Source: Alphaproteobacteria bacterium (lineage in GTDB: Bacteria > Pseudomonadota > Alphaproteobacteria > UBA2966). From it: a DNA stretch of 64,000 nt. This document shows, piece after piece, positions 25,701 through 28,700 of this stretch (the stretch's first letter is position 1; each line of letters starts with the position of its first letter). The position numbers were made by a program. Where the stretch lies: contig OZ251449.1 in NCBI GenBank assembly GCA_965242505.1, positions 1,824,823 to 1,888,822 on the forward strand. The letters run 5' to 3'.

Positions 25701-28700
25701 GACCATCGCCTCGAGGCATTCGTCGGTCAGGGAGATCAGCCGGTCCCACATGATCTTGAGGCTCACGGGATCGAACGGGGCGGCGGCGCGGTTCATGTTT
25801 CCTCCCGGGTTTCGTCCATGGTGGCGCGTGGAGGTCCCGGCCGCAATACGGCGCGCACGGTTCGGGGCGGGACGGGATCTTGAAAATCCGCCGCGCTCCG
25901 CCTACGTGTCGTCCCGACGGTCGCCGCCTTTCAGGGCCGCCGCGTCGTCGGGCGGGGCCGGACGGGAAGTCGTCCCTCGCGCGGGTTGTACGGCCATGGC
26001 CGGATCGGCCGGGTTTCTCACGGCGGAAAGGATACCGGCCGCATGAGCGTCGGCGTTCTGGAACGCGCGCAACGGTCCGACCGGCGCGCCCGAGTGGACC
26101 GCGTATGGCTGGCGATCGCCGGCGTGCTCGCCGGAACCTTCGCGCTCGGCACCGCGCGAGGCCTGGAGACCTTGGTCTTCGTCGGCGACAACCTGTGGAG
26201 CATCCTGCCGTTCCTGCTGGCGTCCGTCGGCGTCGCCGCCTACGCGCAGGCCGCGGGCGCCGATTCCCTGATCGCCCGGGCCTTCCAGGGCCGGACGACC
26301 GGAATGATCGTGCTCGCCGCGCTGTTCGGCGCCGTGTCGCCGTTCTGCTCCTGCGGCGTAATTCCGTTGATCGCCGCCCTGCTCGCCATGGGGGCGCCGC
26401 TGGCCCCAGTGATGGCGTTCTGGCTGGCCTCCCCCGTCATGGATCCGTCGATGTTCGTTCTCACCGCCGGAATCCTCGGGCTTCCCTTCGCCATCGGCAA
26501 GACGGCCGCCGCGTTCGGCATCGGACTGCTCGGCGGATTCGGCATCCATGCGTTGCGGAAGGGCGACCTGTTCCGGAACCCCCTGCGCGACGGTGTCGGC
26601 GGCGGCTGCGGCGGCGCGGCGGCGCGGAACCCGGAGGAGATCGTATGGAGGTTCTGGAAGGAGAGTTCCCGACGCCGGCTCTTCGTCGGGGACGCCCGCA
26701 AGAACCTGCTGTTCCTCGGCAAGTGGCTGACACTGGCGTTCGCGCTCGAAAGCCTCATGCTGGCGTATATCCCGGCCGATACGGTCGCGGCCCTGGTCGG
26801 CGAGGGAGGCTGGCTGCCCGTCCTCACGGCCACCGTCGTCGGAGTCCCGGCATACATCAACGGGTACGCGGCGCTGCCCCTGGTCGGCGGCCTGATCTCG
26901 CAGGGGATGGCGCCCGGCGCGGCCATGGCCTTCCTTCTGGCCGGCGGCGTGACCAGCATTCCGGCCGCCATCGCCGTCTTCGCCCTGGCGCGGGCGCAGG
27001 TGTTCCTGTCGTACATCCTTTTCGCCTTCGCAGGCGCCATGGCCGGCGGTTTCCTTTACGGCGCGATCGCCTGACGCCCGCTGTCCCCGCCCCTCCGTTC
27101 AGGGCATCCGGGACGGCGGGGCGCCCGAAGGCCGTGGGCCTGCCCGCATTTCTCATACTGCCTGTCCGCGAGCTCCATCCGGCGACGGAGGCGCCGCAGG
27201 GTCCGTTCGCGCGCCTCCCCCCTGGCGCGACCCCCACCCCGACCCTCCCCCTGCAAGGGAGAGGGAGAACAGGGGGAACGGAGGAGCCGTTGACGCTCCT
27301 CCCCCCTGACAGGGGGGAGGTCGGGAGGGGGGCCGCGCACTCCTCAATCCCTGCCGGTATGAGAACTGCAAGAGAATATATTCGAGGAGAAGGAGGCGCT
27401 GGCGCTCGTCAGGTAGTGCAAAGCCATGAAGGATGAACTATATTCTCTCTATGTTCCACAAGGGAGCTGGGAACGATGACTACTGGATTGAAAAAAGAGA
27501 TCGCCGCCTACGAGAAGATGCGCGGCGACCTTGAAATCGAACATCTCGGCAAGTGGGTCCTCGTACATGACCGGAAACTCGTCGGAACCTACGGATCGTT
27601 CGAAGAGGCGGCGGAAGACGCCGTGCCGCGCTTCGGTCGCGGGCCATATCTGATCCGACAAGTGGGCGCGGGACCGTTCAGGCTACCGGCCTCCGCATTG
27701 TATCGGCCGATCCAGGCCGCCGATGGTTGATTGCGGGTTCGACGATCGACCGGGAGTGTCCGGTCAGGATCTGCTGGCGCACAACGGGCCGACGCTGATG
27801 GTCGAGATCGGGTTCGATCCGGACTTTCGACCCGGCGCGGGCATCCGTCCCGAATTGCCGCGGCAGCAATATCCCGCCTTGGTGGACACCGGCGCGACCG
27901 AGAGCTGCATCGACTCGGAGCTCGCCGGCGCGTTACGGCTCCCGATCGTCGACCGGCAGGGCATGGCCGGCATTCAAGGGAAGAGCGAGGCCAACATGCA
28001 TCTCGCCCAGATCCACGTTCCGGCCTTAGGTTATACGGCCTATGGCAAATTCGCCGGTGTCCATCTGACCGCGGGCGGACAACCCCACTCCGCCCTCATC
28101 GGTCGAACCTTCCTGCGACACTTCACCATGGCCTACGACGGCGGTACGGGCAAGGTCACCCTCTCTCGCCTCTCCTCATCGTGACCGCGGGGCCGCAGAG
28201 TCCGTTCGCGCCCCTCCCCCTTGGACAGGGGGGAGGTCGGGAGGGAGGTGGGTCGCGGTCCCGCAACGCCGCGCGATCATCAATCCTCCTCCGGTATGAG
28301 AAGTGCGGGCTATTGTCGCGGGGCGGTCCTCGGCGCTATTCTCGGCGCTCGGATTTGCGGCGTCGAATATGAACGCGATGGAGGAGAGGACATGAGCGTC
28401 GCCGAGGATTTGAGCGCGCACGGGATCGTCATTCCGACGGGAAAGTACCAGGGGTACGCGAAGAACCGGCGGCCGGACCCCGACCCCGAGCTGACCTCGA
28501 CGGGGCCGGGCACGCCCTGCGGCGAATACCTGCGCCGCTATTGGCAGCCCGTGTGCATGGCGTCGGAGATCCCCGACGACCGCCCCCTGCGGCTGCGGAT
28601 CATGAGCGAGGACCTCGTCGCGTTCCGCGACGGGTCGGGCCGCTACGGCCTCCTCGCCGCGAATTGCAGCCACCGCAACACCTCGCTCGAATTCGGCATC

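Follow-up and report, generated by a model that had tools for sequence, protein, structure and literature searches.

Bacterial retropepsin-like aspartic proteases are few and poorly understood, and the characterised ones, the membrane-anchored APRc (Rickettsia), RimB (Pseudomonas rimABK) and Rlo (P. aeruginosa), sit in unrelated contexts. According to the abstracts of the papers that identify these three as retropepsin-like aspartic proteases, RimB regulates ribosome modification within RimABK and the Rlo enzymes are secreted (PMC4140852, PMC11957791, PMC11957051), with no mention in those abstracts of a partner resembling DUF5678, a family without known function for which we found no describing paper in the searchable literature. 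A further group comprises the prokaryotic single-domain clan AA peptidases (COG5550/TIGR03698, PF13975/PF13650), of around 120–150 aa, with a DTG motif and one retropepsin-like domain; those of the COG5550/COG3577 type have been described as little known (PMC2642776). Here we analysed a 64,000-nt stretch of contig OZ251449.1 from an alphaproteobacterium (hereafter, the window), which contains two adjacent genes coding for a small DUF5678-like protein, S, and a protease, P. P resembles the single-domain clan AA peptidases in size, motif and domain content but differs from them in having a conserved extension of around 45 residues at its N-terminus and in its upstream partner, which is absent from the descriptions that we found. 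Likewise, we found no description of the S–P pair in the searchable literature, in agreement with the first-pass annotation of the window, which had considered the pairing uncharacterised. Our results provide good support for the core claim that S and P are an uncharacterised, conserved and horizontally acquired gene pair.

S and P are a self-contained two-gene module with conserved linkage, order and overlap. Their linkage was evaluated in the best 80 of 218 relatives of P, obtained by scanning one genome per species and nearly all from metagenome-assembled genomes, and, starting from S, in 76 metagenome loci (soil, peat and others) with enough room for P. Of the 80 genome loci, 78 contained a homolog of S directly upstream of P and co-oriented with it; of the other two (L035 and L052), one contained S downstream on the opposite strand and one lacked it. 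From the S side, P was directly downstream in 68 of the 76 metagenome loci, and two further loci contained a frameshifted P. Additionally, four loci (L124, L127, L128 and L156) had an intact S beside a missing P or an N-terminal stub of P, P without an adjacent S (L035, L052) being rarer than S with a decayed P. The conservation of the small gene next to the protease, on which the first-pass annotation had staked its proposal, is thus borne out from both sides.

The 80 genome loci belong to Chloroflexota/Dehalococcoidia (30), Latescibacterota (11), Acidobacteriota (11), Alphaproteobacteria (5), Gammaproteobacteria (5), Spirochaetia (4), Thermodesulfobacteriota (4) and Verrucomicrobiota (2), with the remainder in Dadabacteria, UBP12 and unclassified bacteria. 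The module occurs in at least ten phyla, with 55–70% identity across phyla. We found no gene family common to the flanks of these loci, the most frequent one appearing in nine of the 80 and being either generic or spurious. Distant pairs also exist, because in contigs L087 and L089 S-like open reading frames (ORFs) of 77 and 99 aa each overlap a P-like gene whose product is 25–32% identical to P. As a separate observation, another distant P-like gene in L088 (29% identical; positions 3785–4306) is preceded by an ORF of 216 aa (3192–3842) that is not S-like and that, judged by eye, resembles a phage repressor of the CI/LexA type, with a helix-turn-helix (HTH) and an S24-like C-terminus.

The junction between both genes is also conserved: S and P overlap by 14 nt in 49 of the 78 linked loci, by 8 nt in another 12, and are otherwise separated by a small gap or share a small overlap. 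In the window, the ORF boundaries and the 8-nt overlap were confirmed in the sequence, and the conservation of the overlap agrees with the translational coupling suggested in the first-pass annotation. Relative to S, P is read in the +1 frame, always with its own ATG or GTG and a conserved N-terminus; therefore, termination-reinitiation coupling is the simpler reading, and we dropped the alternative of a programmed frameshift producing an S–P fusion, as in Gag-Pro.

Analyses of sequence and predicted structure indicate that P is a clan AA retropepsin-like aspartic protease, apparently catalytically competent. The protein contains LVDTGATESCID at residues 53–64, with the expected DTGA motif at 55–58; in an alignment of 121 homologs, D55, G57 and A58 are invariant, so the catalytic Asp stands, and T56 is at least 90% conserved. 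A second block that varies little or not at all, GGQPH.ALIGR, includes G118, G119, H122, G127 and R128, all invariant in an alignment of 20 sequences, and the flap spans approximately residues 81–90, with LIGRTFL at 125–131. More than 1000 homologs of P were found, mostly with 60–78% identity to the window protein. P exceeds the cutoff of Pfam PF13975 (29.1 versus 28.2 bits), falls just short of those of RVP (20.1 versus 20.7) and Asp_protease_2 (22.3 versus 24.3), and remains far below the NCBIfam cutoffs of TIGR03698 (clan_AA_DTGF; 20.8 versus 57.35) and TIGR02281 (clan_AA_DTGA; 14.8 versus 57.95). At the sequence level, P is a subfamily related to, but distinct from, the last two families.

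The AlphaFold2 model of P, with a mean predicted local distance difference test (pLDDT) score of 91.6, adopts a retropepsin fold in which the flap (81–90) shows lower confidence. Its best Foldseek matches were the RVP domain of Ddi1, the proteases of equine infectious anaemia virus (EIAV), feline immunodeficiency virus (FIV) and human immunodeficiency virus (HIV), and APRc, all with probability 1.0 and target-normalised template modelling scores of 0.5–0.6. The sequence profile of P reaches the HIV-1 protease and Ddi1 weakly, aligning the DTGA of P to that of the viral enzyme. P shares with Ddi1 and the HIV-1, EIAV and FIV proteases the DTGA motif, the flap and the hydrophobic-hydrophobic-Gly-Arg signature (LIGR), and, by analogy with these enzymes, P should be active as a homodimer. 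However, it is only 14–22% identical to them, lacks ubiquitin-like (UBL) or UBA domains and any polyprotein context, and its partner S, a distinct polypeptide, adopts another fold. Unlike APRc and Rlo, P shows no evident signal peptide or membrane anchor and is, therefore, most likely cytoplasmic. In a comparison of profiles against the PDB, residues 14–26 of P (SGxDLLxxxGPTL; window positions 27723–27800) aligned with the helix-strand (IGRNLLTQIGATL) at the C-terminus of the monomer that comes first in tethered HIV-1 protease dimers, which hints that the N-terminal extension might mimic, or derive from, a retropepsin C-terminal dimerisation element.

The small protein is also well conserved: we found around 500 homologs of S, with 60–96% identity to the window protein (mostly 60–78%) and invariant motifs, and an exhaustive profile search retrieved 1512 representatives of clusters at 50% identity, mostly stand-alone proteins of 75–120 aa. 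S can be considered a borderline relative of DUF5678 with a small alpha+beta domain. The window protein scored 16.9 bits (E 0.006) against Pfam DUF5678 (PF18929), whose gathering threshold is 23.2; nevertheless, the threshold was exceeded by the close homologs P0156 (26.5 bits), P0175 (28.3) and P0241 (25.0), and 41 of 121 homologs matched the family at E ≤ 0.01, with no competing family. Residues 22–63 of S align to the 49-residue DUF5678 model, which does not extend to the N-terminal helix or the C-terminal tail.

The AlphaFold2 model of S (pLDDT 75.6) consists of a long N-terminal helix (residues 2–23), a beta-hairpin (27–39), a helix (42–53), a third strand (59–62) and a disordered tail (63–84) with values below 50. 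The beta-beta-alpha-beta core (27–62) carries the near-invariant sequence FGRGPYLIR, and the tail contains the conserved LPASALYRP (LPASxLYRP in the family), yet is predicted to be disordered in the monomer. The tail is as conserved as the core, and the FGRGPYLIR loop/strand together with L70, P71, A72, S73 and Y76 belong to the best-conserved positions in the family. The model did not show the beta-grasp or ubiquitin-like fold expected for the Ddi1-like arrangement evoked in the first-pass annotation. Neither the model nor structure searches revealed in S a ribbon-helix-helix (RHH), HTH, AbrB, Phd/YefM-like or other known DNA-binding fold, or a recognisable effector or regulatory fold in its folded part, and the S profile matched nothing meaningful among solved structures.

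Inspection of the cluster sequences showed that some homologs of S occur in other architectures. P0241 (168 aa) and P0260 (187 aa) are tandem proteins with two S domains per chain, which would be compatible with two S per protease dimer. In P0291, P0340 and P0367, from three separate clusters at 50% identity, the protein combines an orotidine 5'-monophosphate (OMP) decarboxylase/HUMPS domain, in frame, with an entire S domain that retains the LPAS tail; in contig L090, a fusion of this type (4001–5005) is directly followed by a homolog of P (5029–5424). Finally, P0301 (208 aa) is the one in-frame S–P fusion, with the S tail LPASVMYNPVNARGP leading directly into the N-terminal region of P; it could be either genuine or the product of a one-base assembly error in the overlap.

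Comparison of syntenic regions supports that the cassette was horizontally acquired in this lineage. The PNPase of the window assigns the stretch to an uncultured alphaproteobacterium, and its best named matches were annotated as 'MAG: Alphaproteobacteria bacterium' (88% identity) and Minwuiales (76%). Contigs L173 and L174, with a PNPase 88% identical to that of the window, keep the block formed by PNPase, NMO, Fur, rubrerythrin, CCG, DUF3501, Rieske and ArsP, and display an empty site, with 89 nt between ArsP_1 and Rieske as compared with 1317 nt in the window; neither S nor P was found in 22 kb of these contigs. Conversely, the closest relative (contigs L081 and L082) presents the same ArsP–S–P–Rieske synteny, with 95% identity for P and 92% for S. 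The nearest homologs of P outside this group, at around 70% identity, are from Spirochaetia and Latescibacterota, with around 60% in other alphaproteobacteria. As pointed out in the first-pass annotation, the composition of the cassette (27372–28184) is atypical: its GC content is 0.614 versus 0.683 for the window, the twelfth lowest among 1264 segments of equal length, and the values for GC at third codon positions (GC3), 0.67 in S and 0.77 in P, compare with a mean of 0.85 (standard deviation 0.05) for likely genes of the window. The low GC3, the non-alphaproteobacterial nearest homologs and the empty site together support that a recent ancestor shared by the window and L081 lineages gained the cassette horizontally, as does the 55–70% identity across phyla.

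The first-pass annotation had also seen evidence for transfer in two repeats flanking the cassette, and this part of the proposal did not hold. Both copies are present in the window, as members of a dispersed family resembling miniature inverted-repeat transposable elements (MITEs), but they are absent from the orthologous positions in L081/L082, indicating that they are independent intergenic insertions in the window lineage and ruling them out as ends of the cassette.

Four close S–P pairs were located in IMG/VR contigs, two of them in a prophage-like setting beside genes for a phage integrase, RecT and a PD-(D/E)XK nuclease (L084, positions 2692–3525 and 7271–8188; L086, positions 1731–2930, 4582–5694 and 5921–6781). 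The pairs in L084 and L086 also adjoin a protein with HTH, HATPase and DUF4325 (STAS-like) domains. Among the PHROGs families there was a single, non-significant match, for S only (E 0.087). The neighbourhood of the cassette seems prone to insertions: in L171 (13937–21054) and L172 (13866–15365, 18949–19932 and 21343–22124), also with a PNPase 88% identical, the syntenic block is broken up by insertions that include several insertion sequence elements (DDE_Tnp_1, IS66, Transposase_mut) and a group II intron reverse transcriptase. L173 additionally contains an unannotated gene for a product of 85 aa (17346–17603) between DUF3501 and Rieske, two genes that are adjacent in the window (29783/29800).

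What S does to P can be approached through the systems that they resemble. Like type II toxin-antitoxin systems, S and P are two small, adjacent, co-oriented and overlapping genes with the smaller one upstream; the upstream gene encodes a protein that is folded on its N-terminal side and ends in a disordered tail, and the pair shows a patchy distribution among phyla, variable contexts and presence/absence polymorphism. Unlike them, S lacks a known DNA-binding fold, no operator is supported, the pair is absent from PLSDB and its conservation is unusually high. Staphopains and staphostatins form operons of a protease and a small dedicated cytoplasmic inhibitor that occupies the active-site cleft, differing from S–P in that the protease is a secreted cysteine protease, the inhibitor gene is downstream and there is no homology. 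We found no report in the literature of a retropepsin acting as a toxin. An archaeal survey listed a small retropepsin-domain gene as accessory to type III CRISPR modules of Sulfolobales (PMC3973734), which is a precedent for the retropepsin fold in conflict systems, not for the S–P pair.

We tentatively favour, with rather less than even confidence, that P is a protease restrained by a tail-bound partner, S and P forming a toxin-antitoxin-like or gated-protease module. S would be a dedicated partner of P translated from the same mRNA, with coupling ensuring that it is always made together with P, and would bind the protease by its C-terminal tail (LPASxLYRP), which is conserved and intrinsically disordered. 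The tail might occupy the substrate cleft in the form of an extended strand, keeping P inactive in the manner of an antitoxin or a pseudo-substrate inhibitor, and loss or displacement of S would then free P to cut cellular or invader proteins. We infer the physical binding of S to P, the role of the tail in it, the inhibition of P and any toxic or defensive function. This reading draws on the two-way linkage, the conserved junction, the lack of any other shared gene, the distant pairs, the intact protease, the fusions and the mobility of the module. Additionally, the anatomy of S is antitoxin-like, because it combines a folded N-terminal domain with a conserved disordered tail, and the loci with an intact S next to a decayed P fit the direction in which S restrains P. 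It is conceivable, although we regard it as doubtful, that S–P represents an unrecognised and widespread toxin-antitoxin-like or abortive-infection-like class, with a cytoplasmic retropepsin as effector and the S tail acting in trans as a pseudo-substrate, much as a flanking cleavage site does for a retroviral protease.

Several observations weigh against restraint of P by S. The asymmetry between orphan S and orphan P genes is small and statistically insecure. An analysis of mutual information with 137 S–P pairs yielded only trivial pairs from the overlap codons (S82–P1 and S83–P2) and noise; covariation between S and P is uninformative, and the tail is too conserved to covary. Neither S nor P was found in PLSDB (72,556 plasmids) or INPHARED (50,697 phage records), and no family of the PADLOC 2023 defence models matched either protein at E ≤ 1. 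The conservation of S and P across phyla (60–78%) is unusually high for a toxin-antitoxin pair; moreover, that of the tail (YRP and beyond) may be due in part to dual coding or to constraints from the ribosome-binding site for the start of P. Finally, a conserved operator upstream of S is not supported, as detailed below.

Two alternatives, both of which we judge unlikely, also assume a functional partnership. S could be a substrate or pro-protein whose tail is cut by P (approximately at L75-Y76-R77-P78), thereby maturing, activating or destabilising S, by analogy with SpoIIGA acting on pro-sigma-E or with a retroviral protease on a flanking site of its polyprotein. The strict gene linkage agrees with this, as does the tail, which is extended, conserved and of the hydrophobic/aromatic-Pro type, with a length that would probably suit a retropepsin cleft; besides, P0301 sets the tail immediately N-terminal to P, as in a polyprotein. 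However, P0301 is a single metagenomic protein and a possible frameshift artefact, cleavage would release merely 6–9 poorly conserved residues, and the folded part of S left behind has no recognisable effector or regulatory fold. Also, where P has decayed S persists intact, and would therefore be left without its processing enzyme. Alternatively, S might act on P as an activator, or as an adaptor or specificity factor that brings substrates to it; the pair would then be a two-polypeptide counterpart of Ddi1, which combines a targeting domain with an RVP domain, or of ClpS and ClpAP. The RVP domains of Ddi1 are indeed the top structural neighbours of P, the high conservation of both proteins across phyla would fit recognition of a conserved cellular target, and fusions of OMP decarboxylase to S exist, one of them followed by P. 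The fold of S is nevertheless not of the beta-grasp/ubiquitin-like type, and a patchy, mobile and context-free distribution is unusual for a housekeeping quality-control factor.

The first-pass annotation had proposed a palindromic operator upstream of S, formed by GAATATATTC and a near-copy, GAACTATATTC, on which S could act as a dimeric DNA-binding repressor or antitoxin over a promoter; we now consider this very improbable. Both sequences are present, but GAACTATATTC is not a second palindrome because it differs by an inserted base, and it might be nothing more than a −10-like TATATT. In the window, GAATATATTC has a single occurrence versus around 0.28 expected by chance, with at least one occurrence in 27 of 100 shuffled sequences, and lies at the end of a MITE-like insertion, just outside the upstream homology with L081/L082, which starts at position 27384; it is not conserved in the closest relative. 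The region 27423–27451, which includes GAACTATATTC, is kept there with 100% identity. Over a broader sample of 77 related loci, the upstream regions could not be aligned and are not conserved between lineages; perfect palindromes with arms of at least 7 nt were weakly enriched upstream of S (8 observed versus 2.7 expected, p ~0.02), with the caveat that the loci are not independent and that terminator-like hairpins were included. Inverted repeats overlap a −10-like box in several lineages, which would also suit a repressor, whereas S lacks any of the RHH, HTH, AbrB or Phd/YefM-like folds. At the other extreme, that the small ORF arose by chance, or that its adjacency to P is coincidental, is scarcely tenable and is refuted by the roughly 500 homologs with 60–96% identity and invariant motifs, as well as by the adjacency in 78 of 80 and 68 of 76 loci.

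In S–P, a retropepsin-like protease of bacteria is thus joined by a DUF5678-like partner that is dedicated to it and co-translated, and the two may constitute a new toxin-antitoxin-like family. If gating of P is the role of S, the pair would define a new class of toxin-antitoxin or defence effector built on aspartic proteolysis, supply a retropepsin inhibitor that is a compact, natural protein and provide a functional annotation for DUF5678. Should the tail be a pseudo-substrate, P would be the first 'toxin' of the retropepsin class to come with a dedicated inhibitor, and the pair a free-living prokaryotic model of retropepsin gating that may bear on how retroviral and Ddi1-type proteases originated. 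Whatever the mechanism, the strict linkage makes this long-unannotated pair of families directly testable by simple co-expression.

Table 1. Features of the S–P cassette and its surroundings, in window coordinates.
Feature	Position	Strand	Description
Gene S	27476-27730	+	ORF of 84 aa; borderline DUF5678-like small protein
Gene P	27723-28184	+	ORF of 153 aa; single-domain retropepsin-like (clan AA) aspartic protease
S/P overlap ATGGTTGA	27723-27730	+	8-nt start/stop junction; translational coupling
Leader, probable promoter of the cassette	27384-27475	+	Near-identical to L081/L082 from 27384 onward
GAACTATATTC	27435-27445		Within the leader; possible −10 (TATATT)
Palindrome GAATATATTC	27374-27383	unassigned	Junction of the upstream repeat end and the conserved leader
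Upstream MITE-like repeat copy	27143-27370	+	Both terminal inverted repeats; context, outside the module
Downstream MITE-like repeat copy	28183-28307	+	5'-truncated, begins at the P stop codon; context, outside the module
ArsP-like permease stop to Rieske oxygenase start	27075-28391	+	1317 nt in the window
MITE-like copies	10789-10945, 14416-14533, 18178-18356, 19763-20049, 23848-24108, 27143-27370, 28183-28307, 52566-52766, 63097-63271		

The leader upstream of S, which includes a GGGAG ribosome-binding site, is AT-richer, with a GC content of 0.50 over 105 nt. A scan of positions 27000–28500 for consensus sigma-70-like promoters did not call any, and no Rfam family was found in positions 26900–28500. 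The MITE-like repeats constitute a modular intergenic family with around nine copies in the 64 kb, of approximately 120–290 nt, in both orientations and some of them truncated. In an alignment of the nine copies, inverted repeats of roughly CCGCATTTCTCATACYGG mark the termini, and the interior contains G/C-rich hairpin modules of the CCCCTCCCCCTGCAAGGGGGAGGG type. One of the copies starts within 2 nt of the tRNA-Lys(CTT) gene (10712–10787), the sole tRNA gene of the window.

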